Shown here: piece by piece, positions 16,334 to 48,138 of the stretch
Numbering within the stretch: the stretch's first letter is position 1
Layout of the letters: each line of letters starts with the position of its first letter
Source of the DNA: Methanothrix sp.
GTDB lineage: Archaea > Halobacteriota > Methanosarcinia > Methanotrichales > Methanotrichaceae
Assembly (NCBI GenBank): GCA_963682135.1
Contig: OY821645.1
Location: 480,001-544,000 of the forward strand
Direction: 5' to 3'
Length of the DNA stretch: 64,000 bases
The notes under the pieces: model-generated
Told to the model about the DNA's origin: nothing
Database searches by the model: none
The model's input: the letters and a program-made list of their open reading frames with translations, nothing else
Made by a program: the position numbers and the translations under genes

Positions 16334-17848
16334 ATGCCGGCCACCTTAACCTATCCCGGTGTGTACATAGAGGAAGTTCCCAGCGGTGTGCGAACCATCG
16401 TTGGCGCAGCAACCTCAATCACAGCGTTTATCGGTCGCGCCCCGCGTGGTCCCGTAAACGATGCAGTGACCATTAACAGCTTCGGGGATTTCGAGCGCAT
16501 CTTTGGAGGGCTTAATGCTGATTATTCTCTGAGCTATGCTGTGAGGGACTTTTACCTCAATGCAGGCAGCCAGGCGATAATCGTGCGGCTATTCAAACCT
16601 AAGGAAGGCGATGGAGTTGCTTCTTTAGATATTTCGATAAAATTGAAAGCTGCCAATCCTGGTTCTTGGGGCAATAATTTGGAAATTAAAGTAGACCATG
16701 ATGTGGCCGAAGGAGTGGCAGAAAAATATGGGCTGGTTAAAACCGACTTATTCAATCTGACTGTTAATGATAAGGCCACAGGTGCTATCGAGGAATTCCG
16801 CAATCTTACTGTTAAAAATAGCCCTCGCAGAGTTGATCTGGTATTGGAGAACGAGTCCAAGCTCGTGCGGATTGAAGCAGGGAGCCTACCAGAAGTAATT
16901 CCTGATGAAATCAAACAAAAAAAGCTGGCGAACGGTATTGACAGCGAGCCATTGGGTACGTTGGATTACAAGGCCAATGAGGCAGAAAAGAAGGGGATCT
17001 ATGCCCTGGAAAAGGCAGACATCTTCAATTTGCTCTGTATCCCTCCTGATATAATAGATAGCGATACGGCTGCAGATGTATACGCAAGTGCCGCAATATA
17101 CTGCGAGAAGCGGCGAGCTATGTTGATTGTAGACCCGCCAAGCGGCTGGACTAGCAAGGATAAGGCTAAAGATGGTGTCGCCAGTGTTGGAACGAATAGC
17201 AAGAATGCAGCTCTCTTCTTCCCCCGGCTTCGGCAGCCCAATCCATTACGAGGAAACCAGATGGAATCTTTTGTTCCATGTGGAGCTGTAGCCGGAGTCA
17301 TCGCCCGGACGGATACTCAGCGCGGTATCTGGAAGGCTCCTGCCGGTCTTGATGCCACTCTAGTTGGTGTTCCTCAACTGAGCGTGTCCTTGACAGATAT
17401 GGAAAATGGCGAGCTAAATCCCAAGGGGATCAATTGCCTCAGATCAATGCCGGCCGCTGGCCGCATCATATGGGGTGCGCGTACCTTGCAGGGAGACGAT
17501 CGTTTGAGCTCGGAATGGAAGTATATCCCGGTAAGACGCGTGGCTCTCTACATAGAAGAAAGCCTTTATAGAGGCACCCAGTGGGTTGTCTTCGAGCCCA
17601 ACGATGAGCCTTTGTGGGCTCAGATCCGGTTAAACGTGGGTTCTTTCATGCATGGCTTATTCCGGCAAGGTGCTTTCCAGGGAGCTTCACCTAAGGAGGC
17701 CTACTTCGTCAAGTGCGACAAAGAAACCACCATCCAGGACGATATCAACAAAGGCATAGTTAACATTATGGTGGGATTTGCTCCGCTCAAGCCTGCAGAG
17801 TTTGTGGTAATTAAGATCCAGCAGATGGCTGGAGAGATCCAGACCTAA
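16334..17848 (+). CDS. Contractile tail sheath protein
   Basis: YPGVYIEEVPSG, RGIWKAPAG, WGARTL, WKYIPVRR, WVVFEPNDEPLW, GFAPLKPAEFVVIKIQQ. Confidence 0.96.
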   Translation: MPATLTYPGVYIEEVPSGVRTIVGAATSITAFIGRAPRGPVNDAVTINSFGDFERIFGGLNADYSLSYAVRDFYLNAGSQAIIVRLFKPKEGDGVASLDISIKLKAANPGSWGNNLEIKVDHDVAEGVAEKYGLVKTDLFNLTVNDKATGAIEEFRNLTVKNSPRRVDLVLENESKLVRIEAGSLPEVIPDEIKQKKLANGIDSEPLGTLDYKANEAEKKGIYALEKADIFNLLCIPPDIIDSDTAADVYASAAIYCEKRRAMLIVDPPSGWTSKDKAKDGVASVGTNSKNAALFFPRLRQPNPLRGNQMESFVPCGAVAGVIARTDTQRGIWKAPAGLDATLVGVPQLSVSLTDMENGELNPKGINCLRSMPAAGRIIWGARTLQGDDRLSSEWKYIPVRRVALYIEESLYRGTQWVVFEPNDEPLWAQIRLNVGSFMHGLFRQGAFQGASPKEAYFVKCDKETTIQDDINKGIVNIMVGFAPLKPAEFVVIKIQQMAGEIQT

Positions 17849-17861
17849 GAGGTGATCATGT

Positions 17862-18374
17862 ATGGCTAGTTTTAGTGTTAATGCAACCCGTTTTGATCCT
17901 TACAAGAGCTTCAAGTTCAGAGTCAAGTGGGATGGCCGGTATGTGGCTGGCGTCAGCAAAGTCAGTGCTCTCAGCCGGACTACGGAAGTGGTCGAGCATC
18001 GTGAAGGGGGCGATCCCAGCAGCACCCGTAAATCTCCAGGGCAGACCAAATACGAGGCTATAACTCTGGAACGAGGAGTAACCCACGATCCGGATTTCGA
18101 AGCGTGGGCCAACAAGGTATGGAGCTACGGGGCCGGCCTGGGTGCAGAGGTCTCTCTCAAGGATTTTCGTAAAGATATCACTATCGAGGTCTATAATGAG
18201 GCGGGGCAGCTCGCGATTGCCTATAACGTCTACCGGTGCTGGGTTTCCGAGTATAAAGCGCTGCCGGATCTCGATGCCAAGAGCAATGAAATTGCCATCC
18301 AGACCCTAAAGCTGGAGAATGAGGGTTGGCTTCGGGATGAGGGCGTAGCCGAACCGTCCGAGCCGTCTTTGTAA
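17862..18374 (+). CDS. Tail tube protein (T4 gp19-like)
   Basis: RFDPYKSFKFRVKWDG, EHREGG, PGQTKYEAITLERGVT, FRKDITIEVYNEAG. Confidence 0.95.
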   Translation: MASFSVNATRFDPYKSFKFRVKWDGRYVAGVSKVSALSRTTEVVEHREGGDPSSTRKSPGQTKYEAITLERGVTHDPDFEAWANKVWSYGAGLGAEVSLKDFRKDITIEVYNEAGQLAIAYNVYRCWVSEYKALPDLDAKSNEIAIQTLKLENEGWLRDEGVAEPSEPSL

Positions 18375-18381: not shown

Positions 18382-19128
18382 ATGCAAACACTATCGCCTC
18401 AAGAACTGCTAAGCATTTGGGAGCAGGGGACGATCTGGCCGGCAGCACTCCGCGCACTTAAGCTGCTGGCCTTTGCATTTCCAAAGAGATCTCAGGAAGA
18501 TCTGGAGAGGATATGCATTGGACAGCGTGACGCCCTTCTGCTCAGGCTTCGTGAGGAGACCTTTGGGTCGCGACTTGTCTGCCTGGCAGAGTGTCCTGGC
18601 TGCAATGAGCGCATGGAGGTGACATTTAGTGTGCAAGACATTTTGGTCGATCCCGCAATTAAAACGGGAGAGGCTTTGTCGATTGCAGTTTCCGGCTACG
18701 AGGTTCAGTATCGTCTTGTATGCAGCCAAGACCTCATCGCCATTGCAGGAATTGAGGATCAGATTTTGGCCCGCAGTGTCCTGTTGGATCGGTGCATCCT
18801 GGCAGTTCGTCATAATAATAAAAATATTTCGGAATATCTTTCTGTAGAAGAGCTGCCCCTCGATGTGCTTAACGCCGTGGTAGATGGGATGGAGCAGGCT
18901 GACCCTCAAGCCGATGTTCAACTATCTCTCACCTGTTCTTCTTGCGGCCATGAGTGGCAGGTCAGTTTTGACATAGTCTCGTTCTTCTGGAGCGAGATCG
19001 ATAACTGGGCCCATCGCATCTTGCGTGAGGTTCATGCTCTGGCGAGAGCCTACGGCTGGAGTGAATCCAATATCCTGGAAATGAGCCCTCTACGGCGTCA
19101 AATTTACCTGGAGATGGCATCCGAATGA
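18382..19128 (+). CDS. eCIS assembly protein (tail assembly chaperone/hub-chaperone-like, two CxxC)
   Basis: IGQRDALLLRLREETFG, CPGC, CSSC, C-terminal 'EVHALARAYGWSESNILEMSPLRRQIYL'; position directly after tube. Confidence 0.7.
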   Translation: MQTLSPQELLSIWEQGTIWPAALRALKLLAFAFPKRSQEDLERICIGQRDALLLRLREETFGSRLVCLAECPGCNERMEVTFSVQDILVDPAIKTGEALSIAVSGYEVQYRLVCSQDLIAIAGIEDQILARSVLLDRCILAVRHNNKNISEYLSVEELPLDVLNAVVDGMEQADPQADVQLSLTCSSCGHEWQVSFDIVSFFWSEIDNWAHRILREVHALARAYGWSESNILEMSPLRRQIYLEMASE

Positions 19129-20867
19129 ACGATTACCTGAGCCGCTTAGTGGCCAAGAACCTCAATTCGGCGCAGCTGATTCAACCCAGGTTGAGGTTTA
19201 GATTTGAGCCGCCATCTTTGAGCGGCGAGATGGTGTACGGTTCTGATAGTTTGGGCGGCAGCATTGTATCCAGTTCCATAGAGTCTGATGCCGATGCCCC
19301 TACTCCCGGATCATCGAATTCATCTCTTGAGATTTCGAAAGAGCCATCACTCGGCGTGGCGACGTCTGAATCGATTTCGCTAAATTCTGGGAAAGTTGCA
19401 GATAGGGCCGAGCCGGAAATTCAGGTCAGTCAACCTCAGCCGATCGGTCGGAATTCAGATCGTCAGATCCGATCAAGTCCGGATGCCGTGCCCTCTCCTT
19501 CGCTTCCTGGGAGAGCGGATAGAGTTTTAAAGAGGATCGATCTGGAAACTCATGTCAGCCAATCTCGCCCGATCGGTCGAATTCCTGATCATCAGATTCA
19601 ATCAAGTCCGGATGCTGTGCCCTCTCCTCCGCTTCCTGGGAGAGCGGATAGAGTTTTAAAGAGGATCGAGCCGGAAATTCAGGTCAGTCAACCTCAGCCG
19701 ATCGGTCGAAGTCCGGATTATCAGATCCAATCAATTCCTGATGCTGTGCCCTCTCTTCCCCATCCTGGTAGAGCGGATAGAGTTGCAAAGAGGGCAGAAA
19801 TGGGGCCTCTGATCGACCAACCTCAGCCTATTGGTGGAAGTTCCGATCGTCAGATCCAATCAAGTCCGGATGCTGTGCCCTCTCCTTCGCATCCTGGTAG
19901 AGCGGATAGAGTTGTGAAGAGGGCCGAAATGGGGCCTCTGATCGACCAACCTCAGCCTATTGGTGGAAGTTCCGATCGTCAGATCCAATCAAGTCCGGAT
20001 GCCGTGCCCTCTCCTCCGCTTCTTGGTAGAGCTGATAGAGTTTTAAAGAGGATCGAGCTGGAAACTCAGGTCAGCCAATCTCGCCCGATCGGTCGAAGTT
20101 CCGATCGTCAGATCCAATCAAGTCCGGATGCCGTGCCCTCTCCTTCGCATCCTGGTAGAGCGGATAGAGTTGTAAAGAGGGCCGAAATGGGGTCTCTGAT
20201 CGACCAATCTCAGCCGATTGGTCGAAGTCCGAATCGTCAGATCCAATCAAGTCCGGATGCCGTGCCCTCTCCTCCGCTTCCTGGTAGAGCGGATAGAGTT
20301 GTAAAGAGGATCGAGCTGGAAACTCATGTCAGCCAATCTCGCCCGATCGGTCGAAGTTCCGATCGTCAGATCCAATCAAGTCCGGATACTATGCTCTCTC
20401 CCCCGCTTCCTGGGATAGCGAATAGGCCGGGGGAGAGGGCCATGACGGGAAAACGAGGAAACCTGAAAATTGCAGCTTTTCCAGCAGCGGACCGGAGTTC
20501 GCACAGAAACGCTGTGCGCTTATCTTATGATGACGATGGGCTCATGCAATCGATAGTATCCATTCAGAATGCATTGTCCCCAAAGTCAACGCAACGCCCA
20601 GCCAAAACCGATCGCCGAAAAGATCTTGATGCGACTGTAGAGCCAATATTTGCCGAGCAAAAAGAGATCTGGTTCATGGATCGAAGGAAGGATGCATTCA
20701 GAGAGAAGTCATCATCGGGATCCAATTCATCGATCAAAGTGAATATCGGACGGGTTGAGGTGCGTGCTACAGCATCAGCATCAACCCCGCCGCCTCCGCC
20801 CCAAAAGGCTGTCTCAACATCGAGATCGGGTCTCTCTCTGGATGATTATCTCAAGCGTCGAAGGTGA
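19125..20867 (+). CDS. Pro/Ser-rich repeat protein of the eCIS (candidate tape measure)
   Basis: Distinct ends (DYLSRLVA..IQPRL..FEP; IKVNIGRVEVRA...SLDDYLKRR) around 8 tandem 43-aa repeats; overlaps the upstream stop. Confidence 0.7.
   Translation: MNDYLSRLVAKNLNSAQLIQPRLRFRFEPPSLSGEMVYGSDSLGGSIVSSSIESDADAPTPGSSNSSLEISKEPSLGVATSESISLNSGKVADRAEPEIQVSQPQPIGRNSDRQIRSSPDAVPSPSLPGRADRVLKRIDLETHVSQSRPIGRIPDHQIQSSPDAVPSPPLPGRADRVLKRIEPEIQVSQPQPIGRSPDYQIQSIPDAVPSLPHPGRADRVAKRAEMGPLIDQPQPIGGSSDRQIQSSPDAVPSPSHPGRADRVVKRAEMGPLIDQPQPIGGSSDRQIQSSPDAVPSPPLLGRADRVLKRIELETQVSQSRPIGRSSDRQIQSSPDAVPSPSHPGRADRVVKRAEMGSLIDQSQPIGRSPNRQIQSSPDAVPSPPLPGRADRVVKRIELETHVSQSRPIGRSSDRQIQSSPDTMLSPPLPGIANRPGERAMTGKRGNLKIAAFPAADRSSHRNAVRLSYDDDGLMQSIVSIQNALSPKSTQRPAKTDRRKDLDATVEPIFAEQKEIWFMDRRKDAFREKSSSGSNSSIKVNIGRVEVRATASASTPPPPPQKAVSTSRSGLSLDDYLKRRR
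19400..20430 (+). repeat. Intragenic tandem repeat, ~8 x 129 bp
   Basis: TCAAGTCCGGATG core at 19473, 19602 and onward at 129-bp spacing; unit RADRVLKRIELETQVSQSRPIGRSSDRQIQSSPDAVPSPPLPG. Confidence 0.92.
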
Positions 20868-20872
20868 TGATC

Positions 20873-22087
20873 ATGAGCAACTTCTTGGCAATTGCCACAG
20901 TTACCGAAGCTCTTAGACAACTTCTCGACGAGGCGGTCAAAGAAGACGTCTCCGGAGCTATAGCTACAGCGGTGCGGCCTGCCGGCAACGGAAATGAGCT
21001 GGCGCAGGTGGGTGTCAACGTCTACCTCTATCAGGCCAGCCCCAATACCTCATGGCGCAACGATGATCTTCCCAGCCGGCGCGAGGATGGAACCGCGATT
21101 CAACGTCCCAGAGCGGCCCTGGATCTGCACTATCTTTTAACCTTTTACGGTGACGAAAAAAGGCTTGAGCCTCAGAGGGTGATGGGAAGCGTTGTCCGGA
21201 CTCTGCATACGCAACCGATCTTATCGCGCCAGCAGATTCAGAAGGCGGTCCAGAGCGTCGATTATCTGGGAGATTCCGACCTGGGGGAAGCGATGGAACA
21301 GGTCAAGTTCACGCCTGTGCCCCTCTCGGTCGAAGAGCTTAACAACCTTTGGTCCGGATTCTTTCAGACGTCTTATGCTCTTTCTGTGGCTTATCAGGGG
21401 TCGGTGATCTTCATCGAAGGCAAAGTACAGGCCCAAAAGCCTTTGCCGGTGCGGGGCCGCAACCTGTACGCTGCCACATTCCGCCAGCCGGTCATAGAGC
21501 AGGTCATCTCCGAGGAGGGTGCCGGTCGGCCTATCGTCGCGGGAACTGCTCTGGTTGTTCGGGGCAGGAATCTCCTGGGCGATGTGACAACTGTGGCCAT
21601 AGAGGGCGAAGAGATCGCACCATCTGATATCCTGGAACTTCATGATCAAGAGATCAAATTCCGTTTGCCGTCGTCTCTCCGGCGGGCTGGGGTGCTGGGC
21701 TTGCAGGTGATCCACAAAAGGATGATGGGATCGCCCCCAACGCCTCATCAGGGGGATGAATCTAACCTGGCCGCTTTTGTGCTGCGCCCTACGATCTCGG
21801 TTGATGAGGCTGGGAAGGTGGTGCATATAAGTCCTGCCATCGGGAAGGATCAGCGTTTGCTCTTGCATATGAACGAAATACCTCCCGGCGCTTCGCAAAC
21901 TTTGCCTTTGAGGGCGCGCTCTTTCCTTATCCCGTCGAGGAAGGCGGCAATTTGGGAAATCCCTATACCGGCTGATGATTTGGAAACGGGAGATTATCTG
22001 GTGCGAGTGGAGGCGGACGGCGCAGAGAGCGTTCTTTATGCCGATGAGGCCGGAAACTACATCGGACCGAAGGTGAGTATTGCATGA
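20873..22087 (+). CDS. DUF4255/Pvc16-like cap (tail terminator) protein with C-terminal Ig-like domains
   Basis: MSNFLAIATVTEALRQLL, VNVYLYQASPN..WRN.DLPSR, LDLHYLLTFYG, LSVAYQGSVIFIE. Confidence 0.85.
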   Translation: MSNFLAIATVTEALRQLLDEAVKEDVSGAIATAVRPAGNGNELAQVGVNVYLYQASPNTSWRNDDLPSRREDGTAIQRPRAALDLHYLLTFYGDEKRLEPQRVMGSVVRTLHTQPILSRQQIQKAVQSVDYLGDSDLGEAMEQVKFTPVPLSVEELNNLWSGFFQTSYALSVAYQGSVIFIEGKVQAQKPLPVRGRNLYAATFRQPVIEQVISEEGAGRPIVAGTALVVRGRNLLGDVTTVAIEGEEIAPSDILELHDQEIKFRLPSSLRRAGVLGLQVIHKRMMGSPPTPHQGDESNLAAFVLRPTISVDEAGKVVHISPAIGKDQRLLLHMNEIPPGASQTLPLRARSFLIPSRKAAIWEIPIPADDLETGDYLVRVEADGAESVLYADEAGNYIGPKVSIA

Positions 22088-24054
22088 GTTCTATGCAGGA
22101 CTGGCAGGAGGCAAATCAGAGGTATCTGATGGCCGAGCTTGCCGTCCTGCAGAGGCGGCTGGAAGGCTACATTGCCGAACTAGGAGATGAAACGCAGGAT
22201 TTAGAGGTGAAGGAGAGGGAGACGGAAAGTGAGACGGCCCCCATCTCTTTTGAAAAAAGTGCTCTGGATTCTATCGGTCAAATCTTTAGCCTCACCTCTT
22301 TCGAGAGGGATCTGCTGCTCTTTTGTGCCGGGCCGGAGCTTGATTTTGGGTTTGCCTCGCTCTGCAGCCGGGCCGGTGGTGGGTCCTGTCTACCCACCTT
22401 TGCTCTAGCTTGCCGGGTTCTGCCCAATGTTCATTGGAGCGCTTTTACCCCTGCCGGGCCATTGAGGAGATGGCATCTGATTGAGGTGGGCAATGGAGAT
22501 GCTCTGACCTGCAGTCCCTTGCGGGTCGATGAGAGGGTGCTGCACTATCTGCTGGGAATAGACTATCCGGACGAGAGGTTGAGAGCATTTGAAACGCTTG
22601 CAGTGCCTCAAGATCTGCCCGATTCTTACAGGGATCTCGCTTGCCGGATCGAGGGGGCCATGCAGAGGTCGGACCGGCCTGCTGTCCAGCTTTTGGGCAC
22701 TGATTCACAGGCAAAGCTGGATGTTGCCGCCTTCGCTTGCGCACAGCTCGGCCTTCGGCTTTATGCCATCAGTTCTGAGGATATACCGCTTGTTTTAGGG
22801 GATCGAGAGAAGCTCGCCTGGCTCTGGGAGCGGGAGGCGTTCTTGAGCGGCGCCGTCTTGCTGGTGGATTGCGAAGAGCTGGAAGGAAGGGAGAGGACGC
22901 ATGCCGTCCTTTCGCTGGTGGAGGGACTTCGCAGCCAGGTTCTGATTGCGGCCCTTCAGCCTCTTCGCCTCAAGAGGCGGGCCGGTCTCAGTCTGGAGGT
23001 GGCAAGGCCCAGGCCCGCAGAGAGGCAGATGATCTGGCAGAAGGCGCTCGGGCCTTTGGCGGATGGGCTGGACGGCCAGCTGGAGGTACTGGTGGATCAG
23101 TTCGATCTGGGCCAGAGGGAGATTCGGGCCGCCAGTGCGCAGGCTGCGATCTTGGGAAAGGACGCGGATCTTGGCGATCCCGGAAATCTTGATGGTCTTG
23201 GTGATCGGCTCTGGGATGCCTGTCGCATCCAGGCCCGGCCCCGCCTGGAAGAGCTGGCCCAGAGGATTGAGCCTGCTGCCACCTGGGAGGATCTGGTATT
23301 GCCCGAATCCCTTCTGCAGATACTGAGGGAGATCGGAGTGCATCTTCGCCAGAGCAGCAAGGTTTACGGGTCATGGGGTTTCGGCTCCAAGGGGTCTCGG
23401 GGGCTGGGAATCAGCGCTCTCTTTGCCGGAGATAGCGGGACCGGCAAGACGATGGCAGCCGAGGTTCTGGCAAACGATCTGAAGCTGGATCTCTACCGCA
23501 TCGACCTCTCCCAGGTGGTGAGCAAGTACATCGGCGAGACCGAGAAGAACCTGCGGAAGGTATTCGATGCTGCGGATAGGGGCGGAGCAATCCTATTATT
23601 CGACGAGGCGGATGCCCTATTTGGCAAGAGGAGCGAGGTGAAGGACAGCCACGACCGTTATGCCAACATCGAGACCAGCTACCTTCTGCAGAGGATGGAG
23701 GAGTACCGGGGGCTGGCTATACTCACCACCAACATGAGAAGCGCTCTCGACCGGGCATTTTTGCGGCGCATCAGGTTTGTGGTGCAGTTTCCTTTCCCCA
23801 GCTCGGCAGAACGGGCATCGATCTGGGAGCGGGTCTTTCCCAGGGATACCCCTCAAGAGGGCCTGGACTTCGATAAGCTGGCCAGGCTGAATGTCGCCGG
23901 GGGAAACATCCGAAACATCGCCATCTATGCCGCCTTCCTGGCGGCGGATGACCGCTCAGCGGTACGGATGTCTCACCTTGTTCGGGCGGCCCGGGTGGAG
24001 TACGCCAAGCTGGAGCGGCCTCTCACGGAAGCTGATATCGGGGGTTGGGCATGA
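22084..24054 (+). CDS. eCIS AAA+ ATPase (Afp15/Pvc15-like)
   Basis: GDSGTGKT Walker A, VVSKYIGETEKNL, LLFDEADALFGKRSEVKDSHDRYANIE. Confidence 0.93.
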   Translation: MSSMQDWQEANQRYLMAELAVLQRRLEGYIAELGDETQDLEVKERETESETAPISFEKSALDSIGQIFSLTSFERDLLLFCAGPELDFGFASLCSRAGGGSCLPTFALACRVLPNVHWSAFTPAGPLRRWHLIEVGNGDALTCSPLRVDERVLHYLLGIDYPDERLRAFETLAVPQDLPDSYRDLACRIEGAMQRSDRPAVQLLGTDSQAKLDVAAFACAQLGLRLYAISSEDIPLVLGDREKLAWLWEREAFLSGAVLLVDCEELEGRERTHAVLSLVEGLRSQVLIAALQPLRLKRRAGLSLEVARPRPAERQMIWQKALGPLADGLDGQLEVLVDQFDLGQREIRAASAQAAILGKDADLGDPGNLDGLGDRLWDACRIQARPRLEELAQRIEPAATWEDLVLPESLLQILREIGVHLRQSSKVYGSWGFGSKGSRGLGISALFAGDSGTGKTMAAEVLANDLKLDLYRIDLSQVVSKYIGETEKNLRKVFDAADRGGAILLFDEADALFGKRSEVKDSHDRYANIETSYLLQRMEEYRGLAILTTNMRSALDRAFLRRIRFVVQFPFPSSAERASIWERVFPRDTPQEGLDFDKLARLNVAGGNIRNIAIYAAFLAADDRSAVRMSHLVRAARVEYAKLERPLTEADIGGWA

Positions 24055-24314
24055 ACTTGCATTCTGTTGATCTTAATCTGAATATCGAGGAGCTGGTCTT
24101 GCGGGGCTTTCCCAACCGGGATCAGGACCGGATCCTGCGAGCTGTGCAGGCGGAGCTGGAGCGGCTTATCAGAGAAAAGGGCGTTCCTGCAGCTCTTTCC
24201 AGTGGCGGCGAGCTGGCCCGCCTGGACGCAGGAAGCATTGAGGCAGAACCAGGCTCCAGCCCTGAGGAAATTGGCGCCCAGGTGGCACGGTCTTTGTACG
24301 GGGGTTTTAGGTAG
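24051..24314 (+). CDS. Small eCIS-associated hypothetical protein
   Basis: NIEELVLRGF...AVQAELERL...IGAQVARSLYGG; coupled between the ATPase and DUF4157 genes. Confidence 0.7.
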   Translation: MNLHSVDLNLNIEELVLRGFPNRDQDRILRAVQAELERLIREKGVPAALSSGGELARLDAGSIEAEPGSSPEEIGAQVARSLYGGFR

Positions 24315-25838: not shown

Positions 25839-25885
25839 TTGGAACTTATCATGAATATTACCGATACAATCATCGCAAATTCACC

Positions 25886-29598: not shown

Positions 29599-29599
29599 G

Positions 29600-41200: not shown

Positions 41201-41827
41201 GCCAGGATCGAGGCAAGACTGTGGCAGCCCGCTCCTCCCGATCAAAGCTTAATATGGTTTAACGCAAGCCTTAGCACCGCAGAAGAGGTGGCTTATGTTC
41301 CGCCTGCAGCGTGCCCCCAGCTGAAAGATGTCAGAACCGTCCAGGCTGCCATTGATGGTCTGTGCAAAACCCTCTCAGAGAGGACATCCCGGGTCGTGTG
41401 GGTTCACGGCAATAGCCTGCAGGTTGAAAAAATGGCAGGAGAAATTACGGTTGTGCGGGAAAATTATGCAACCGCAGTCAGAATGACAGGCGGCTCTAAG
41501 GCCGGAATGCATTTTTCAATTCCAACCATCCAGTCTCCGGGCGGCATCCCCCCGCTGGCTCAGGGGTCCCTGGTTCGTCTCAGAGCATCATCTGATTCTG
41601 CAGCTGCATTTTCTCTTTCCATTGCCGTATCAATCTATGATGGTGAGATTTCGATATCTGATGGTAATAGAATAGGGATTTCCGGAACATGGGAGACAAA
41701 AGAGATCGACTTTCCCGATAAAGAAATAAAGACCGGGCTAGGTATATCGATATATGCAGAGTGCACCGCAGGAAGCGGCAAGATAGAGCTTAGCGCTGCT
41801 GGATGCAGGATTTTATCAGACTGGTGA
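38291..41827 (+). CDS. DUF6519-type fibre-like protein with four Ig-like (Big/invasin-type) repeats
   Basis: MKGDFTRFTFDP.KH...VLMQQGRV.LDADWNEQ; YRGLENQLYRVEIH..G...ATFKWSR.NG; 4x S(Y/C)xxGDGQEAMPG; 2x VRTVQxAIxxLC. Confidence 0.8.
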   Translation: MKGDFTRFTFDPKKHFNRVLMQQGRVILDADWNEQSDIQKHIRETEDSDVIGPSGAPIDFAGFKVEVAPDGRELILSTGRMYVNGILCELDAHILYFESVAFPSEKLVKLLTQNIEDMGFEKGQWIEISVKSDEQIAPQVLKVVEINAAESILTLNDNVNGNLSTQAASSGIFIKIFSKIEAEHELDTDASETFLAHLDVWERHITSVEDDGIREKALDGPDTTTRAKTEWRVKLLPCELEKKSCREAALKLKNLTEKNVSRLAVRLQPSQGEFFEDPCAALLQAAYRGLENQLYRVEIHKPGETGKATFKWSRNNGAIAFAILDFIAEEAANSGAKTDPNVYKKVKLQQLGWDEELRIHKDDWVEVLGDETEILGKPGTLARVEDIDETDLILTLTVDVARHLEESNPKVRLWDIDASEGISTVGTSEEDCWIELENGIEVCFKAGDYYQTGDYWMIAARSTGDIEWPYDEKDFVPKFGIQHHNCLLAILTRNQDRMWKFEKDCRKLFPNLTDMVFFSYAGGDGQEAMPGKELPSSLQVGVHRGGSPIVGAEVKFEIAKGQGELRLSDNTFSYQKDCTITTGEDGIAECFWKFGEDQPKADPIWTEMVKATLLSPEQEHPPSILFNASASAASLSYVEGDGQEAMPGEELPAPLLARVFVGGYPLKNAEVEFEILKGQGELRSSESAFSGLRNLKVTAGEDGIARCFWKIGTDQPEGALIWTEQVEARLINPKQEHSPSMFFNANVIALALSYAGGDGQEAMPGKGLPAPFRVRVSRGERPVEGAEVVFEILEGQGVLNPAGSVPTGKDGIAQCACQLADGVGSMHLQVRAALINIVCPDKTGALSHPSIIFNANASIAEEVACVPPTECSQLKDVRTVQGAINRLCQQVSFSCIGGDGQEAMPGLELASPLQVRVARGSYPVNGASVKFKIESENGLLRDSKGVTGYELSVLTDENGIAACFCILYKSARIEARLWQPAPPDQSLIWFNASLSTAEEVAYVPPAACPQLKDVRTVQAAIDGLCKTLSERTSRVVWVHGNSLQVEKMAGEITVVRENYATAVRMTGGSKAGMHFSIPTIQSPGGIPPLAQGSLVRLRASSDSAAAFSLSIAVSIYDGEISISDGNRIGISGTWETKEIDFPDKEIKTGLGISIYAECTAGSGKIELSAAGCRILSDW

Positions 41828-41860: not shown

Positions 41861-44800
41861 ATGAAAGGCGATTTCACACGGTTTACATTTGATCCCACGA
41901 AGCATTACAGCAGCGTGCGGATGCAACAGGGACGCATTCAGCTCGATGCAGATTGGAACGAACAGGCTGAGATCCAACTGTATCACAGTTATATCACCAA
42001 TCATGACGTAATTGGACTATGCGGCGCTCCCAAACACAATCCCGGATTTGCTATCGGCGTTTCTTCCGGCGAGCTGACAATAGGAAAGGGCCGTTACTAT
42101 GTTGGGGGTATCCTCTGTGAGAATGAGCAGGATATATCTTACTTAGCACAACCGGATATTATTCCTGAGAAGGTTGAGAGCGACGGCCGGTATCTGGCCT
42201 ACCTCGAGGTCTGGCAGAGGCATCTGACTGCTGTTGAGGATGAGGATATCAAGGAGGTGGCCCTCGGTGGGACCGATACCGCAACTCGCACCAAGACCGT
42301 ATGGCAGGTCAAGCTGCGGCGGCTGGAGACCCTCTCTGCAAATCCGGGCGATGACTGTCCCTGTCCCACGGTGACCCGCATTGCCGGTCTTGCTGTCCGA
42401 ACCGATCCCCTGGGGCCTGAGGATCCTTGCATCTTGCAGCAGGGCGCAGGTTACCACGGTCTGGGAAACCAACTATATCGTGTGGAGATCCACCAGCAGG
42501 GAAGGACGGGCGTTGCCACCTTCAAGTGGTCGCGTGATAACGGCTCTATTGTCCGTGCTGTGGAAAAGGTTGACGGCAACTCGATCACATTGCAGGATTG
42601 TGCCCAAGGCATACAGGATATATTTCTGCCAGGCAAGCTGATTGAGATATCCGATGAGCTGCGGGATCTCAGAGGAGCGCCGGGAGTGCTGGCAGCAGTC
42701 CAGTCTGTGCAGGGCAATGTCCTGGTTGTGGCAGAAAGCAAAAGGATAAGCGGAAAGGACTTTCCATCGAGCGGTAAGCCTAAGGTGCGGCTGTGGGATA
42801 ATCAGATTAAAAATAAGCTGGCGAATAATGATGGCAGCCTGAAGACAGGAGCTGATTGGATCGGTCTGGAGACCGGCATTATGGTCCGGTTTGATCCCAA
42901 TGGCGATTATAGGTGTGGCGATTATTGGCTTATTCCGGCCCGCCGGGCCACAGGCCTGATACAATGGCCTCATAGCGAGAATGAATTCGTGCCGCGTCTG
43001 GGCATAATCCGCCATCGCTGCTCTCTGGCCGTCCTGCAGAAGTCCGGCGAATCATGGTCCGCGTTAAAAGACTGCCGCAGAGTATTTCCTCCCCTCACTG
43101 AGATCGAAGTTACGGGTGGTTCGGGCAGCTGCTCGGTCACAGTTGGAAAAGGCGGAGAGTACTCTGATCTGTCTGCTGCCATCGGAGATCTAATTGGCAA
43201 GCACAAAAATGATTCACTGAAGACGATCTGCATCTGTCTGCTGCCTGGAGAGCATATTGTCAAAAACCTGACTGTGGATACGCCGACGAAAACCCCTCAA
43301 TTTAATTTGCACATAAGAGGCTGCGCAAGCTCCACTCTTCTTGTTTCATCCGGCCAGATGAAGATAATCGGACTGGCCAGCGTATCCTTTGAAAATATGC
43401 TGATCAAGACGATAGAATGCAATGATGAGGCGCTGCACGCATCTGGGGCAATCTTCTTAGAGGGCACGGAGAGTATCGCAGTTCGTTCCTGTCGGGTGGA
43501 AGGTGAGGGAATTCCTTTGCTGAGGATCGGTCCCACCGCCAGGCATATCGTCATCAGTAATAGCTTCCTACTTCCCACAGATGTTAGCGAGAGGTTAGCT
43601 CTGGTAATTCATCAGGTAACTGAAGATGCGACCCTGACCCACAATTGGATCAGAGGAAAGCTAAGCCTGGGTCCGACGGGAGTGCATATCGGTACCTGGC
43701 CGGATCTATCTCGCCAGGAGATGAGCCTTGCTGGCGATCTCATGAGGCGTGGTCTGCTCAAGCTGGGGGGAATGAGCAGCGGAACCTTACGGATGCAAGG
43801 AAACCGGCTAACCAGAGTTCTGGCGGGAGATATTATAATTGAGGAGATCAAAGAACTGCTAAAGACAGATGAAGTCACCAAAGAGGGTCCGGGAAGGCCG
43901 TCAAGACCTCTGCAAAAAGTAATTAAATCCTGGTTTTTCCGGCAGGTATTATTCTCGGAAAACATCATTGAAGAGGAGAATGTTGCCCTGCAAGGAAACA
44001 ATCAGGTAATAGGAGAGAGCGTTTCCATTAACTCCAACTGGTTAAGCCCGGCCAGGGGAGATGATACGACTGGAAAGAAGCTATTGGGATGGTCGATGGC
44101 GGACAGCGCTTTTTATGCAGGAAACAGCGGCCTTGAGGATGTTCAGATCTGTGATCTATCCAGGATAAGCAGCAAGGCGGGCAATACCATTGATATCATG
44201 AAGTGCCGGCCTGCCGCTCATTATCTGGCTTATCGATCTCGGGGCGGAAGAGCTCAGAGCTACCGCTGGCATAATGACCGCGTCAGAGCTAACATTATCA
44301 CGGAAAAATGGGAGGAAAACTGTGATTTACTTTCCGCCTTACTGGGAGGCAAGCCGCATTTCCTGCTTCGTGGTCCTACTGCCGATGGAAAGGCGCCTTT
44401 TGCTCTTTATGGCATCAAATCCAAAGCCGTCAGAGAGATGATCTGGTCGGAGAGCTGGGAGTATGATCCGAGTTATGCAATAACCCCTCTGGATATTGGC
44501 GGCCAGATGAACTTTGTCTCTTACAGATCAACTGATGGAGATGTGCAGCTCTGGCGCAGGAATTCGCAGGGAGGCAAGGATATTATCGGCTACGGTTGGG
44601 GCGTAGGATATGAGATAGTGCCGTTTTCGTTCAATTCTGAGCCGCATTTCGTTGCCTACAAGTCGGAGAACGGCAGCGCCGAGATATACCATTGGACATC
44701 TGATGGCAAAAGAGAGACTGTCAGATCGGAGAAGTGGAAAGAGACCTGTAAGCTGGTGCCTTTTGAACTGGAGGGCAAGTCCTATCTCTTGATGTACGGG

Positions 44801-45973
44801 CCCAAAGGAATTTTTAATGACGGACCGGGCAGGTTATTCAACTCGAAGGTCTATATCTGGAATGCCGATAAGAGCAGATCCGAGGCTTATTCTTTTAACC
44901 GCCAGGAAGACTCCATTGTCATGCCCTTCAAGCGGGCTGCGGTTCCTTATGTCATGATATATAAGGAGAGCACAGCCGCTTTTGAGATACATCGCTGGGT
45001 GCAAAAGACGGGGGGAAAGCTGGATCTAGAGATCCTGGCAACAGGGACGATGCCGATCTCTCTGAAGAGCAATCTTACCATTCCTTTTTATCAGGTAACT
45101 GATCTCTATTTCGCTTCTTACGACACGACTACCGGCTTAGCCGTTTTATGTAAAGGATTGGCGGGCGGCACTCCTAAAAATCCAATAGTGACCATTACCC
45201 CGGGAAAGTCCTTCACCTGGCAGAAGGATTCAAATGTGATCGTATTTGAGGCCAATAACCTGCTTCATTTCGTGGTTTACAACCCTAAATCAGGGGCAGT
45301 ACTCTTATCCCGCGGTAAGTCGGAGAAAGAAGGCTATTCTCTGGAGACTGTGTGGACTGGAACCTGGGAACCATCCGATGCTTTGATGGTATTTGATCTG
45401 GGCGGAAAGCCTCACTATTTGGCCAGTATGCAGGAGAAGCGGCTGATTCAGTTAAGCCGCTGGAAGCTGGAAGACGGAACTAATGAATTGATCTGGTCGA
45501 GCGGTTGGGAGGCAGGATATGTCCTTTATAGAGTGCTGCTCTCCGGCCAGTCTCTTGTTCTGGCCTACAAGCCGGGCGACGGGAAGGTGGAGCTGTGCAG
45601 CTGGGATGCAGGTGGTGTGAGGGTGAGCATCTGGGTCAATAGCTGGGAAAAAGGCTACAGCAGGCTGGTCTTCTTTGAGATTGGAGGCCAGCCGGTCTTC
45701 CTGGGCTACCGGCCTGAGGACGGACAGGCAACGCTCTGTAGCTGGGATCCGGCCAAGGGAACTCATGAGGTTGTTTGGAGTGACGAGTGGGGGCAAAATT
45801 ATGCTCCTATGGCCTTCGAGCTGGAGGGCAGCGCTTATCTATTGGTCTACAGGGCGGCGGACGGGCGGGCTGCTCTCTACCGCTGGAACCCTGACGGCAG
45901 CCGGGTGGCGGTCTGGCAGGAAGAGTGGGGGCAGGGATACACGCTGATGCCTTTTTCGCTTTCTGAGGATTAG
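41861..45973 (+). CDS. Second DUF6519-type fibre-like protein with beta-helix and ~12 Trp-rich beta-propeller-like repeats
   Basis: Same MKGDFTRFTFDP...QQGR..LDADWNEQ head; ICLLPGEH beta-helix start; C-terminal repeats such as FLGYRPEDGQATLCSWD...WSDEWGQNY..MAFELEG. Confidence 0.8.
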   Translation: MKGDFTRFTFDPTKHYSSVRMQQGRIQLDADWNEQAEIQLYHSYITNHDVIGLCGAPKHNPGFAIGVSSGELTIGKGRYYVGGILCENEQDISYLAQPDIIPEKVESDGRYLAYLEVWQRHLTAVEDEDIKEVALGGTDTATRTKTVWQVKLRRLETLSANPGDDCPCPTVTRIAGLAVRTDPLGPEDPCILQQGAGYHGLGNQLYRVEIHQQGRTGVATFKWSRDNGSIVRAVEKVDGNSITLQDCAQGIQDIFLPGKLIEISDELRDLRGAPGVLAAVQSVQGNVLVVAESKRISGKDFPSSGKPKVRLWDNQIKNKLANNDGSLKTGADWIGLETGIMVRFDPNGDYRCGDYWLIPARRATGLIQWPHSENEFVPRLGIIRHRCSLAVLQKSGESWSALKDCRRVFPPLTEIEVTGGSGSCSVTVGKGGEYSDLSAAIGDLIGKHKNDSLKTICICLLPGEHIVKNLTVDTPTKTPQFNLHIRGCASSTLLVSSGQMKIIGLASVSFENMLIKTIECNDEALHASGAIFLEGTESIAVRSCRVEGEGIPLLRIGPTARHIVISNSFLLPTDVSERLALVIHQVTEDATLTHNWIRGKLSLGPTGVHIGTWPDLSRQEMSLAGDLMRRGLLKLGGMSSGTLRMQGNRLTRVLAGDIIIEEIKELLKTDEVTKEGPGRPSRPLQKVIKSWFFRQVLFSENIIEEENVALQGNNQVIGESVSINSNWLSPARGDDTTGKKLLGWSMADSAFYAGNSGLEDVQICDLSRISSKAGNTIDIMKCRPAAHYLAYRSRGGRAQSYRWHNDRVRANIITEKWEENCDLLSALLGGKPHFLLRGPTADGKAPFALYGIKSKAVREMIWSESWEYDPSYAITPLDIGGQMNFVSYRSTDGDVQLWRRNSQGGKDIIGYGWGVGYEIVPFSFNSEPHFVAYKSENGSAEIYHWTSDGKRETVRSEKWKETCKLVPFELEGKSYLLMYGPKGIFNDGPGRLFNSKVYIWNADKSRSEAYSFNRQEDSIVMPFKRAAVPYVMIYKESTAAFEIHRWVQKTGGKLDLEILATGTMPISLKSNLTIPFYQVTDLYFASYDTTTGLAVLCKGLAGGTPKNPIVTITPGKSFTWQKDSNVIVFEANNLLHFVVYNPKSGAVLLSRGKSEKEGYSLETVWTGTWEPSDALMVFDLGGKPHYLASMQEKRLIQLSRWKLEDGTNELIWSSGWEAGYVLYRVLLSGQSLVLAYKPGDGKVELCSWDAGGVRVSIWVNSWEKGYSRLVFFEIGGQPVFLGYRPEDGQATLCSWDPAKGTHEVVWSDEWGQNYAPMAFELEGSAYLLVYRAADGRAALYRWNPDGSRVAVWQEEWGQGYTLMPFSLSED

Positions 45974-45987
45974 GGGGAGAAGCAATT

Positions 45988-48138
45988 ATGATGACTAGAT
46001 TGAGGAAACCTGCACAGGAATCTGGAAGGTTCGTTGTGCCGCAGCATAGTCATTTCGCATCGCGCCACTTTGCTCAGAGAGCTGAGGAGCACGAGGCCCC
46101 GGCTGCGAAGTCACCTGTCCCCTTCAGCCTTGCCGATATCGACATCTTCCCACGGGAGACCGTGCAGCCAAAGCTGTGGCTGGGGCCGGTCGGGGATCGA
46201 TACGAGGAGGAGGCGGACCAGATGGCCGGCCGGGTGGTCCAGATTATCTCATCTCCTGATCCAGGTCCTGTGCAGAGGCAGGAAGACCTGAAAGACGAGG
46301 ATGAACTGGATCTGGAAGAGGACGGAGCGCTACAGCGAAAAGTCGCAGGACCCGCTCCATCAACCAGGGTCGCAGATCTCGGGCCCGAATTTGATTCTTC
46401 CATTCAACGGGCGCGGCTAGGCGGAAAAACCCTTCCGGATAGCGTCCGCCTGCCGATGGAGCGGGCTTTTGGCGCCGACTTTGGCGGCGTGAGAATCCAC
46501 GCCGATGAAGTAGCAAACAGGCTCAATCGATCGATCCAGGCGCGAGCCTTCACGACGGGGCAGGACGTCTTCCTCAGGCAAGGCGAGTACCGCCCCGGAA
46601 GCTTTGAGGGACAGAGGCTGCTGGCACACGAGCTGACGCATGTAGTGCAGCAAAATGGTAGTAAGATGCAGAAGGAAAATGTAATTCAGCGATATATGCT
46701 TTACAATCCGGGGGCGGGGGCAGGACAGTATCAGACCAACGGAGGTGCCGACTTTACTAGCCAGATCACGGGAGGGGCTGGTAATTCGTTTATTGATCCT
46801 GGTACCCAATTGCCTCGTTTGCAGAATCAGGTAAATCCACCAGCAGTGCGCGTCTCTCAAAATGGCCACCTCGCTATCGAGGACGCTCAACTAACCAATA
46901 GGCAACCCAAGTTCTTCTATGCCAACGTCGCTATGGTGCCTGCATGGAACGATACCTTGCAGTCTCAGGGATCATTCTACCGGCTGGTCGTGGTTGGCGG
47001 GCCAATCCTTACCTTTGTTATGCCTGGAGGCGATGCCCGGCATCTAGCCAAAATCGAGGCGCGAAATCTGGAGCGGGGCAATCAAGGGCTGGGTATGACC
47101 ACAGCCCAGCGATGTGACGAGATGGTGCGAGAGGTACTGGGCACAATAGGTACAGAACCGAAGGCTTTGTTCAATAATGCGCCCATGCAACTCCCTGAAG
47201 CAAATCAGGTGACACAAGAAATCATCCGGCACTACTACGTGGCTGCCGAGCTTGCTTACGAAGCAGCCGGTGGGGGAGGGGCTGGCGCAGGCGGTGCGTG
47301 GGGCGTCGGCGGAATGCCAGTTAACGGAGTGGACTTCTCAAATAGCGATCCTGTGTTTAATGCTGTGGCAGCAAACTACGGCAACGAGATGAATTTGCAT
47401 CTGGGCGCAGTACCCAACGCTGCGCTGGCCGCACGAATGCAATTTCTTGGGGTGAATGAGTACGCAGCTCCCGAGGTAGGCCAGGGACTTGTTACGCACA
47501 AACTGGGAAAAGAGACTGCTGCACCGGGAGCAGGGGGAGGAACACAACTGATTGATGCATACAACAACCGCGTCGTACCAAATCCGAACAACAACACAAT
47601 GTGGGGATTTCATTGGGCAGGAGTGATTGCCAAAGACGGAACAGATTATATAACCATAGAGAACTACGCACGCAATGCAGAAGACAATCACTTACCCCTG
47701 TCCCCTGCTGATCCACGGTTTTACTTCCAGATGTATGGGGCTGATGCCCAATCCTGGCACGCCCAATGGTCGGCTATCGGACGCGGGGGACGAGAGTTTG
47801 TCAACCCGGTTAGCATGGTGGTCGCGGCAGAAGAAACGCCAGAGGTTTACGAAGAGCGAGCGATGCGAAACTTTGGGAACAACATCTATGCCATCCGATA
47901 TGATTACAACACTTTGGCCGTCGTGGGGGCGACGGACGACCAGTTAAGGATCGGACTGTTAAAAGGTTTGGCGTATGCAAAATACATTCTCGACAACAAT
48001 GTTTGGGGAAATCAGGGAACGGTTAATGCGTGGGTGACAGCTGTGACCAATGTTGCTAACCCAGCGGTCACAGCACTGCGCGACCATGTACTGGCCCGAC
48101 TCGGCCAAATCTGGAGAATCCCAATTGTTGGTCTGTAG
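45988..48138 (+). CDS. DUF4157 protein with C-terminal putative Cys-His-Glu (papain/CHAP-like) effector domain
   Basis: N-terminal ~220 aa paralogous to the 24315 gene, including LLAHELTHVVQQ; C-terminal QRCDEM...WGFHWAGVIAKDGTDYITIENY. Confidence 0.78.
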   Translation: MMTRLRKPAQESGRFVVPQHSHFASRHFAQRAEEHEAPAAKSPVPFSLADIDIFPRETVQPKLWLGPVGDRYEEEADQMAGRVVQIISSPDPGPVQRQEDLKDEDELDLEEDGALQRKVAGPAPSTRVADLGPEFDSSIQRARLGGKTLPDSVRLPMERAFGADFGGVRIHADEVANRLNRSIQARAFTTGQDVFLRQGEYRPGSFEGQRLLAHELTHVVQQNGSKMQKENVIQRYMLYNPGAGAGQYQTNGGADFTSQITGGAGNSFIDPGTQLPRLQNQVNPPAVRVSQNGHLAIEDAQLTNRQPKFFYANVAMVPAWNDTLQSQGSFYRLVVVGGPILTFVMPGGDARHLAKIEARNLERGNQGLGMTTAQRCDEMVREVLGTIGTEPKALFNNAPMQLPEANQVTQEIIRHYYVAAELAYEAAGGGGAGAGGAWGVGGMPVNGVDFSNSDPVFNAVAANYGNEMNLHLGAVPNAALAARMQFLGVNEYAAPEVGQGLVTHKLGKETAAPGAGGGTQLIDAYNNRVVPNPNNNTMWGFHWAGVIAKDGTDYITIENYARNAEDNHLPLSPADPRFYFQMYGADAQSWHAQWSAIGRGGREFVNPVSMVVAAEETPEVYEERAMRNFGNNIYAIRYDYNTLAVVGATDDQLRIGLLKGLAYAKYILDNNVWGNQGTVNAWVTAVTNVANPAVTALRDHVLARLGQIWRIPIVGL

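Follow-up and report, generated by a model that had tools for sequence, protein, structure and literature searches.

What does a row of phage-tail-like genes do on the chromosome of a methanogenic archaeon, and does the machine it encodes act outside or inside the cell that builds it? The genes in question belong to a Methanothrix sp. (assembly GCA_963682135.1) and lie within a 64,000-nucleotide stretch (the window; positions 480,001 to 544,000 of contig OY821645.1), in which an original prediction, made from the sequence alone, had recognized an apparently complete extracellular contractile injection system (eCIS) at positions 16334 to 48138 of the window. The locus is almost certainly a contractile injection system (CIS) of the Afp/PVC-like superfamily, corresponding to lineage II of Chen 2019 and to the phage-like protein translocation structures (PLTS) of Sarris 2014. 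The explanation as a whole that we favor, with a probability of roughly 0.55, is that of a complete chromosomal CIS, loaded with cargo, targeted by fibers, and most likely extracellular; extracellular action taken by itself, which is argued by analogy with studied systems, we regard as an even call.

The listing of open reading frames (ORFs) with their translations bore out the 19 co-oriented genes of the original prediction: 19 ORFs, all on the + strand and all intact, fill positions 16334 to 48138 (O1 to O19; Table 1). They are tightly packed, with 5 of the 18 junctions overlapping (four by 4 nt and one by 11 nt), 7 more spaced by no more than 14 nt, and the remaining 6 wider (19, 23, 33, 91, 260, and 411 nt). 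Family matches in Pfam, PHROG, or NCBIfam were obtained for 14 of the 19 ORFs, and such matches support the predicted sheath, tube, cap, ATPase, hub, spike, wedges, two fibers, and two effectors, as well as the tip, the last at a score below its cut-off. The gene inventory therefore stood as far as these 19 ORFs are concerned but its extent did not, since two further genes, here called s89 and x115, had been overlooked and the locus reaches to about position 49258. The host genome is a single closed contig of 3,043,341 bp that is 99.87% complete and carries mcrA; O1 is its only sheath gene, and O7 and O19 are its only DUF4157 (eCIS_core) genes.

Table 1. Features of the CIS locus, with positions in the window and the evidence for each assignment
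Feature	Positions	Strand	Size	Assignment	Evidence
AT-rich stretch	14781..16333		1.55 kb	Non-coding stretch upstream of sheath gene	Composition; no ORF
O1	16334..17848	+	504 aa	Contractile sheath, Cis2/Afp2-4 type	Pfam Phage_sheath_1 and Phage_sheath_1C
O2	17862..18374	+	170 aa	Inner tube, gp19/Afp1 type	Pfam Phage_T4_gp19, E 4.2e-47
O3	18382..19128	+	248 aa	PF12322 T4_baseplate-family protein	Pfam E 2.5e-14, above cut-off
O4	19125..20867	+	580 aa	P/S/R-rich repeat protein, candidate tape measure	Position and repeats
O5	20864..22087	+	407 aa	Tube/sheath terminator cap, Afp16/Pvc16 type	Pfam Pvc16_N (= DUF4255), E 4.5e-45
O6	22084..24054	+	656 aa	AAA+ ATPase with N-terminal winged helix, Afp15/Pvc15/Alg15 type	AAA 7.6e-25; WHD 5.6e-16
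s89	24045..24314	+	up to 89 aa	Small conserved protein	Occupies 260-nt gap after ATPase gene
O7	24315..25838	+	507 aa	Cargo/effector 1: leader, DUF4157 (145-222), C-terminal domain (about 288-430)	eCIS_core 4.3e-35
O8-like relic	25900..26099	+	first ~90 codons	Frameshifted relic of O8-like gene	In 411-nt gap after O7
O8	26250..26894	+	214 aa	Conserved structural protein	Conservation in relatives
O9	26918..27202	+	94 aa	Small baseplate-associated protein	PHROG 7145 'baseplate wedge subunit', E 1e-5
O10	27294..28328	+	344 aa	Hub, gpD/gp27-like half of split VgrG	PHROG 52 'tail protein', 1.6e-8
O11	28331..28891	+	186 aa	Spike, gp5 OB-fold/Afp8 type	Pfam Phage_base_V, 9.6e-25
O12	28894..29238	+	114 aa	PAAR-like spike tip	PAAR_motif E 0.0025; directly after spike
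O13	29242..29598	+	118 aa	Baseplate wedge gp25, Afp9 type	Pfam GPW_gp25, 6.9e-17
O14	29588..32041	+	817 aa	Wedge, gp6/J-like, Afp11 copy 1	PHROG 219 'baseplate wedge subunit', 1.3e-26
O15	32045..36067	+	1340 aa	Second, enlarged baseplate J-like protein	TIGR02243, 3.8e-62
O16	36064..38271	+	735 aa	Peripheral baseplate protein	Tail_P2_I E 0.0081, below cut-off
O17	38291..41827	+	1178 aa	Fiber 1, own distal part (weak Big_1, DUF6623)	Pfam DUF6519, 5.9e-62
O18	41861..45973	+	1370 aa	Fiber 2, distal part unrelated to O17	Pfam DUF6519, 8.5e-58
O19	45988..48138	+	716 aa	Cargo/effector 2: leader, DUF4157 (149-224), 490-aa C-terminal domain	eCIS_core 1.9e-32
x115	48911..49258	+	115 aa	Zinc-finger-like protein	Linked to CIS loci within genus

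The sheath protein O1 matched Phage_sheath_1 with 43.7 bits against a cut-off of 31.4, and its closest solved relatives by sequence in the PDB were the Streptomyces sheaths 8bky (5e-78) and 8bl4 (2.3e-75), followed by the Halogeometricum sheath 9ezm (1.4e-70). Afp2, Afp3 (6.7e-46), Pvc2, Pvc3, and the two closest chains of 9qgl matched at about 1e-40 to 1e-51, 7adz, which we take to be the AlgoCIS sheath, at 4.7e-41, and Pvc4, Afp4, and the third 9qgl chain at 1e-25 to 1e-31. The original description of the gene set as that of an eCIS was therefore sustained in part: the core domains of the Afp/PVC-like superfamily were matched, but the nearest solved sheaths, being cytoplasmic or membrane-bound, do not support the label extracellular. 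The tube protein O2 was 67 to 80% identical to its counterparts in six individually listed bacterial loci. O3 gave a PHROG 150 'baseplate hub' match, was encoded at the same place in 37 of the 38 long loci compared from bacteria, and had neither a PDB sequence match nor an NCBIfam match. The gene order sheath, tube, O3, variable gene, cap, and ATPase was retained in 37 of these 38 loci, and DUF4157 was present in 32 of them. Between the ATPase gene and the first cargo gene, s89 was 79% identical in L014, a locus of a Methanothrix metagenome-assembled genome (MAG), and was found in the congeners G015 and G017. Homologues directly 3' of the ATPase gene were also present in 32 further loci (of L015 to L093; E 5e-20 to 4e-4), which are bacterial with few exceptions. 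With no match in Pfam or NCBIfam, s89 is by this conservation a real, conserved, unnamed component that the original prediction had missed.

For the baseplate, the spike protein O11 additionally carries a beta-helical trimerization domain (1.3e-6), and the hub protein O10 gave a weak VgrG match in the PDB (9rce_F, 5.9e-5). The PAAR_motif match of O12 reached 18.4 bits, under the 27-bit cut-off, although its position and size fit a spike tip and a 48% identical homologue is present in the Myxococcus locus L082. O15 exceeded the cut-off of TIGR02243 'putative baseplate assembly protein' (210.8 against 155.8 bits) and matched PHROG 219 at 1.8e-19, while O14 gave a weak Gp6-like_1st match (8.6e-4); the paralogy between the two is weak, and Pfam Baseplate_J was not among the matches for either. 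O16, a possible analogue of P2 gpI/Afp12, was 31 to 44% identical in G015 and G017 and had no PDB sequence match. O8 was 96% identical in L014 and 53 to 61% identical in G015 and G017, and lay in the same position in those bacterial loci that extend so far, for example L082; it matched no family in Pfam, PHROG, or NCBIfam and nothing in the PDB by sequence. O9 sits where PLTS clusters have a LysM/tail-X-like gene and is kept in congeners and bacterial loci, with a Phage_tail_X match at E 0.19. No NCBIfam match was obtained for O9, O10, O12, or O16.

The two fiber-like proteins have their first 420 to 525 residues or so in common (39 to 51% identity) and then diverge. The DUF6519 domain found in both is eBAP5, one of five baseplate-anchor domains that Nachmias 2026 describes for eCIS tail fibers. 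Neither O17 nor O18 had a PDB sequence match or a hydrophobic segment. A hydrophobic 19-residue window resembling a membrane helix was absent from 18 of the 19 ORFs; O15 showed one weak hydrophobic window, inside a soluble domain, and O1 one borderline window.

The two cargo proteins were 68% identical over their N-terminal 228 residues, which comprise the leader and DUF4157 with its HExxH motif, and were unrelated beyond. The C-terminal domain (CTD) of O7 had two close relatives, and 32 representative relatives at E ≤ 1e-3; in the alignment, eCIS_core was present in 14 of the 33 members, one HNH match was obtained at E 0.01, and the invariant columns included a D-H pair, Trp, Tyr, and Asn. 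An AlphaFold (AF2) model of the domain had a pLDDT of 76.9, and about 90 over the core. When searched with Foldseek, the first three rows were the Gme HNH nicking endonuclease at E 0.25, with further His-Me nucleases listed and nothing at E ≤ 0.001. VIA-align against 48,161 chains was led by a retron HNH nuclease, the Gme enzyme, and Vibrio endonuclease I, all at a weak Z of 3.7 and with no Z ≥ 5, and the nearest named Atlas clusters were nucleases (score 0.81). The domain had no Pfam match, and a PDB profile search gave only helical-hairpin proteins, on the C-terminal helices. Concordant as these weak signals are, they suggest that the O7 CTD is probably a His-Me finger nuclease. The O19 CTD had nine relatives among 5.8 billion clusters, six of them fused to DUF4157 (PF13699), and their alignment had 93 invariant columns, including C151, H246, H317, and H366. 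The AF2 model built on this nine-row alignment was unusable (pLDDT 46.6); the domain had no Pfam match at E up to 5, its best Atlas score (0.79) was too weak to use, and a PDB profile search returned only a short nucleoporin coiled coil (E 0.22).

How the cargo came to its place is suggested by comparison with L014. The first cargo slot of L014 holds a different DUF4157 protein, while the structural CIS proteins of the two genomes are 84 to 97% identical, and the O7 CTD was found in none of 58 congeners. Nucleotide homology with L014 ends at 24500, inside the O7 leader, and restarts at 26235, just before O8. In the gap between the O7 and O8 genes, a tblastn search of O8 on positions 25839 to 26249 matched residues 20 to 41 and 56 to 89 in two different frames (joint E 1e-8). 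We infer that this O8-like relic, which lies within the break in homology, may be the scar of a cargo-cassette exchange. The pattern fits import of a cassette by recombination in the conserved genes that border it; in this view, cargo is exchanged and the machine conserved.

Clusters of this type are already catalogued, by genome surveys since 2014, in methanogens and anaerobic methanotrophic archaea (ANME) among others, as the original prediction had stated for archaeal loci generally. Sarris 2014 reports them for 34 euryarchaeal genomes, including a Methanosarcinales representative, and describes archaeal clusters as having two baseplate-J genes and separate ORFs for GPD and base V. Chen 2019 assigns archaeal loci to subtypes IIa and IIc, each of which has afp11 in two copies, Chadwick 2022 reports related clusters for all ANME groups, and a 2025 paper also describes CIS clusters in ANME-3. 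The core Pfam domains of eCIS are listed by Geller 2021, where DUF4157 is given as a core domain joined to toxins. The claim that no functional study exists for a methanogen agrees with our literature search, which found none, and with Zachs 2024, in which methanogen and ANME clusters are called unexplored and named as an open area; the haloarchaeal CIS is the only archaeal CIS with functional data. The details that are new here are local ones: the linkage of x115, s89, the repeats of the candidate ruler O4, two poorly known toxin domains, and the putative scar of the cargo swap.

The locus was next compared with characterized systems. With lineage II/PLTS clusters, as described in the surveys for instance for Methanomethylovorans hollandica (Metho_1612-1628), it shares the core set and its order, a single sheath gene, two J-like genes, split GPD and base-V genes, a PAAR-like protein, an AAA+ ATPase, and the absence of any lysis cassette; it also has fibers, which Chen 2019 gives for IIa and IIb and not for most of IIc and IId. 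AlgoCIS of Algoriphagus machipongonensis, which is proven to be extracellular, has two cargoes built from a leader, DUF4157, and a variable CTD, like O7 and O19, and according to the preprint its loading needs the disordered leader and the AAA+ protein, DUF4157 being dispensable, and its length is set by a tape measure (preprint 10.64898/2026.05.27.728243). It differs in its bacterial host and its more distant sheath. The cytoplasmic CIS of Streptomyces coelicolor and S. venezuelae, which have the closest solved sheath, are like the locus members of lineage II with one sheath gene. For these clusters, Casu 2023 describes no tail fiber and no typical tape measure, and reports two tube genes and a transmembrane adaptor (Sco4242/CisA), whereas the locus has two fibers, a single gp19 tube gene, and no transmembrane protein, O16 to O18 being free of transmembrane segments. 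The CIS of Halogeometricum borinquense, which is like a type VI secretion system (T6SS-like), has an archaeal host, a related sheath (9ezm), and 14 structural gene types in common with the locus; as described by Zachs 2024, its cluster is plasmid-borne, is split by an 8.7-kb spacer, has no recognizable tape measure, and includes a putative membrane anchor and toxin-immunity pairs. In contrast, the methanogen locus forms one contiguous cluster on the chromosome, in which neither an anchor nor an immunity gene was recognized. Afp of Serratia entomophila and PVC of Photorhabdus resemble the locus in sheath, tube, Pvc16_N cap, AAA+ ATPase, VgrG-like spike, PAAR-like tip, gp25, gp6/J, fibers, and cargo genes at the 3' end. 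They differ in having three sheath paralogues, adenovirus-like fibers with eBAP1/2, and cargo described as lacking DUF4157 (Nachmias 2026; preprint 10.64898/2026.05.27.728243), and their sheaths are more distant from O1 than are the Streptomyces and haloarchaeal sheaths. The locus also has an AAA+ ATPase, Pvc16_N, and DUF4157 cargo, and no lysis gene was recognized in it. An R-type tailocin, by comparison, is usually defined as a phage-tail cluster that includes lysis genes but encodes no AAA+ ATPase, no Pvc16 cap, and no cargo.

In the mechanism that we propose, a baseplate would be assembled from the O10/O11 hub and spike, the O12 tip, the O13 gp25 protein, the O14/O15 wedges, and O16, and the O2 tube and O1 sheath would polymerize on it until closed by the O5 cap, with O4 possibly setting the length. 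By analogy with Cgo1 and Cgo2 of AlgoCIS, O6 would load O7 and O19 into the tube lumen by means of their common N-terminal leader. Particles would be released from a lysing subpopulation and act from outside on neighboring microbes, with O17 and O18, which combine the eBAP5 anchor with different distal parts, binding the target surface and triggering contraction. The payload then injected would be O7, the probable His-Me nuclease, and O19, a toxin of unknown fold. The two DUF6519 (eBAP5) fibers, the lack of a clear transmembrane segment in the 19 ORFs, and the AlgoCIS-type cargo argue for the extracellular mode. Other observations weigh against this explanation. The solved sheaths closest to O1 are not those of extracellular systems (8bky and 9ezm, as compared with PVC and Afp at about 1e-46 to 1e-51), and the DUF4157 cargo does not tell the mode of action, because DUF4157 effectors also serve a Streptomyces CIS for which no extracellular action is known. 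Fiber-like proteins of the thylakoid-anchored CIS (tCIS) of Anabaena are described as membrane anchors (Nachmias 2026). Neither a lysis or release gene nor, beside O7 or O19, an immunity gene was recognized. Methanothrix cells live inside a tubular proteinaceous sheath, which would hinder the release of particles. Finally, the matches of O12 to PAAR and of O16 to Tail_P2_I fall under the Pfam cut-offs, O8, O9, and O16 are without a clear family, each of the nuclease signals (Foldseek, VIA-align, Atlas, and HNH) is weak, and the smaller number of O4 repeats in L014, a short-read MAG, may be due to assembly collapse.

Several of these observations would be expected of an intracellular CIS that is fired under stress and releases its toxins inside the cell, causing the regulated death of the producer or of a neighbor in the filament, as in Streptomyces and Anabaena; in its filament version it could cut filaments or remove damaged cells. 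We consider this unlikely, though it deserves serious weight. Among solved sheaths, O1 is best matched by the cytoplasmic Streptomyces Cis2 (8bky/8bl4), DUF4157 effectors operate with Streptomyces CIS, no immunity gene was recognized beside the probable nuclease and no lysis genes were recognized, and many of the closest sheaths (58 to 66%) are from filamentous or multicellular organisms (Nostoc, Calothrix, Microcoleus, Chloroflexales, Thioploca, Myxococcus, and Streptomyces). Methanothrix is itself filamentous and sheathed. However, closest sheaths also come from many unicellular Nitrospira, Marinobacter, Rhodanobacter, and Acidobacteriota, and the multicellular pattern carries no statistics; the locus has no clear transmembrane segment in its 19 ORFs; and it encodes two soluble eBAP5 fibers where the Streptomyces system is described as having a transmembrane adaptor and no fibers (Casu 2023). 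An elaboration of the intracellular explanation, argued by analogy, in which the CIS would be a developmental or stress device firing within the sheathed filament and killing single cells, with x115 as its switch and O4 as its ruler, we hold to be a more doubtful proposal.

A contact-dependent system like that of H. borinquense, with its baseplate on the cytoplasmic membrane and firing into a touching cell, is in our judgment quite unlikely. Methanothrix occurs in dense granules and consortia, but the tubular sheath of the producer would stand between baseplate and target. The only functionally studied archaeal CIS is of this kind, its sheath 9ezm is the second-best solved match (1.4e-70), and both systems share the two J-like genes and the split spike that are reported for clusters of archaea (Sarris 2014; Chen 2019). 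A putative membrane anchor marks the haloarchaeal T6SS-like clade according to Zachs 2024, whereas no membrane protein was found in or beside the locus by a hydrophobicity scan, as distinct from a search with the sequence of the anchor Hbor_38620, and no toxin-immunity pairs like those described for the haloarchaeal system were recognized. It is very improbable, last, that the locus is an inactive remnant, that is, a domesticated phage-tail or tailocin-like cluster that is unexpressed and retained by chance. The sheath cluster is missing from 19 of 36 congeners, as might be so for a remnant, but the 19 ORFs, s89, and x115 are all open over 32 kb, and the gene order is kept across many bacterial phyla. 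The 84 to 97% identity of the structural proteins with those of L014, where the cargo differs, indicates purifying selection. An AAA+ ATPase, a Pvc16 cap, and DUF4157 cargo are also present, and we know of no tailocin with any of these. Taken together, the above-described results leave the cargo-loaded, fiber-targeted, most likely extracellular CIS as the explanation that we prefer.

Conservation of the cluster within the genus was uneven. The sheath gene was present in 17 of 36 congeners. G015 has the intact cluster next to the same flank genes, and so does L014 for the stretch that its locus covers (from O1 into O10). The chromosomal position is unchanged in G015, yet the CIS proteins were 30 to 56% identical (tube 79%) as compared with 84 to 89% for the flanks, which fits either replacement or very fast evolution in place. 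Congener sheaths were 49 to 67% identical to O1, except that of L014 (83%), and sheath homologues of Nostoc, Microcoleus, Calothrix, Chloroflexota, Nitrospira, Streptomyces, and others were 56 to 66% identical; other sheath relatives were labelled Methanotrichaceae and Methanosarcinales, in line with a host in or very near Methanothrix. The sheath phylogeny that the original prediction had proposed was run on 97 rows, with four N-terminally incomplete rows left out and a second sheath type as the outgroup; the 80 rows picked as best matches to the O1 sheath were bacterial but for four labelled archaeal. Sequences of the same genus were scattered among bacterial ones, and O1 and L014 adjoined a Chloroflexales sequence (SH-aLRT 95). 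Forcing the 23 archaeal rows, a group named after inspection of the tree, to stay together cost 94 log-likelihood units (approximately unbiased test, p = 0.032). Because this group was post hoc and the rows were picked as best matches, we claim only that the sheath appears to have been exchanged repeatedly across domains, with no direction implied. The 40 rows of a sheath tblastn search on PLSDB included Rhizobium, Ensifer, and Streptomyces, among others, but did not include the Halogeometricum plasmid.

Two further observations were made on the sheaths of the genus. The second sheath type, 31 to 36% identical to O1 (34 to 37% in another comparison), forms its own clade and was found at G007:C5, G001:C70, G026:C1, G008:C24, and G027:C74 (L103 to L106 and L109), and in the sister family in G048 and G058; G007 and G027 carry both types, and the host genome carries the first type only. 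Among sheaths of the same type as O1, lengths ranged from its 504 aa to 636, 742, 761, and 1066 aa among congeners (L100 of G016, L102 of G027, L007 of G015, and L096 of G012), the differences being insertions in a variable region after about residue 100 that are presumably extra surface domains.

The repeat protein O4 is encoded between O3 and the cap gene and carries, at positions 19409 to 20425, a tandem array in which a 129-nt (43-aa) unit is repeated 7.9 times. Its homologue in L014 has about 390 aa and 3.4 copies. O4 matched no family in Pfam, PHROG, or NCBIfam, and in relatives and bacteria its slot is filled by a gene-sized stretch without a detectable sequence match, O4 itself being matched in 2 of the 38 long loci. 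Its position and architecture suggest that O4 is possibly a length ruler.

The x115 gene follows the presence of the CIS within the genus: among 36 congeners searched for both genes, it was found in 16 of the 17 that were sheath-positive and in 1 of the 19 that were sheath-negative, and both exceptions are genomes that are about 70% complete. Related genomes are not independent, so that statistics on these counts would be overstated, but the adjacency itself is direct. The gene lies just upstream of the sheath gene in G009, G012, G016, G017, G028, G008, and G026, lies at the far end of the locus in the host genome (G000) and in G015, G004, G001, and G027, and accompanies both sheath types of the genus. 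In 19 sequences a C-x-C ... H-x2-C motif is retained; x115 had no Pfam or NCBIfam match, and it was found in none of the 38 long bacterial loci. These properties suggest a genus-specific accessory, perhaps a regulator. An x115 match with an in-frame TGA (G012:C1:405270-405521) and a match to the sheath N-terminus with an in-frame TAG (G035:C5:6362-6658) were also seen; either could be a decayed copy or a sequencing error.

Upstream of the sheath gene, the non-coding stretch has no ORF of at least 70 aa wholly inside it (the longest is 63 aa), and the bin from 14001 to 16000 has a GC content of 33% as compared with about 48 to 59% in the locus. Its repeats are all low-complexity AT, with extreme AT blocks at 14880-15330 and 15550-15870, and L014 aligns through the whole of it at 83 to 86% nucleotide identity. 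It is a probable promoter or regulatory region. Both neighboring contigs of G015 end near this stretch, as expected of a region that is hard to assemble. A terminator and promoter scan 3' of O19 gave results at chance level.

The flanks of the locus and the rest of the genome were examined for other origins. No match to TerL_ATPase (PF03354), Terminase_6N (PF03237), HK97 Phage_capsid (PF05065), or Phage_portal (PF04860) was found in the closed genome, whereas control genomes were matched; the test covered these four families, with archaeal virus capsids of other folds outside its scope. Neither a tRNA nor an integrase was found at the locus borders. A prophage was rejected on these grounds, and the original statement that head, packaging, and integrase genes are missing held within the same scope. 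One flank carries pyruvate:ferredoxin oxidoreductase, ferritin, and an HdrD-like/FAD-oxidase pair, and the other a metallophosphoesterase, a deacetylase, an XPD-type helicase, MoeA, and phosphoenolpyruvate synthase. The HdrD-like and FAD-oxidase proteins of L014 are 92 to 95% identical to those of the host. A chimeric contig, which the original prediction had singled out for checking at the two junctions, was rejected as well, since the same flank genes adjoin the cluster in G015 and L014 and the assembly is a single, nearly complete contig. Insertion of the cluster as an island could not be set against an empty site, because the two flank genes lie 187 kb apart in G024, a congener without the sheath, which leaves no clean empty site.

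Elsewhere in the window, Rfam recognized no RNA family. ARAGORN called a tRNA-Ile (AAT) on the - strand at 33077-33163, antisense within the O15 coding region, which is probably a false positive, Rfam being silent there at its gathering score. A few kb downstream of the locus lie a Cas4-like PD-(D/E)XK nuclease gene (55721-56437) and an XPD/DinG-type helicase gene (51427-53751), with two unassigned ORFs between them (53866-54459 and 54477-55679). This block is probably unrelated to the CIS, because it is syntenic in congeners with and without a CIS. A NosD/right-handed beta-helix protein, possibly a surface protein, is encoded at 682-1989.

In wetlands and digesters, much methane is produced by acetoclastic methanogens of the Methanothrix type, which form dense consortia, and an injection machine that works would offer a lever on which microbes live beside the methanogen. 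If the CIS instead kills within the filament, it would be the first example in Archaea of programmed cell death mediated by a CIS. The locus, in its closed genome, offers a compact test case for cargoes with a shared leader, for a probable nuclease family often fused to DUF4157, and for a rare 490-aa toxin domain, and further handles are provided by the two fibers, the repeat array that differs between close relatives, and the linked, genus-specific zinc-finger gene. The general picture of CIS is unchanged by these results, and the value of the locus is that of a well-annotated entry point.

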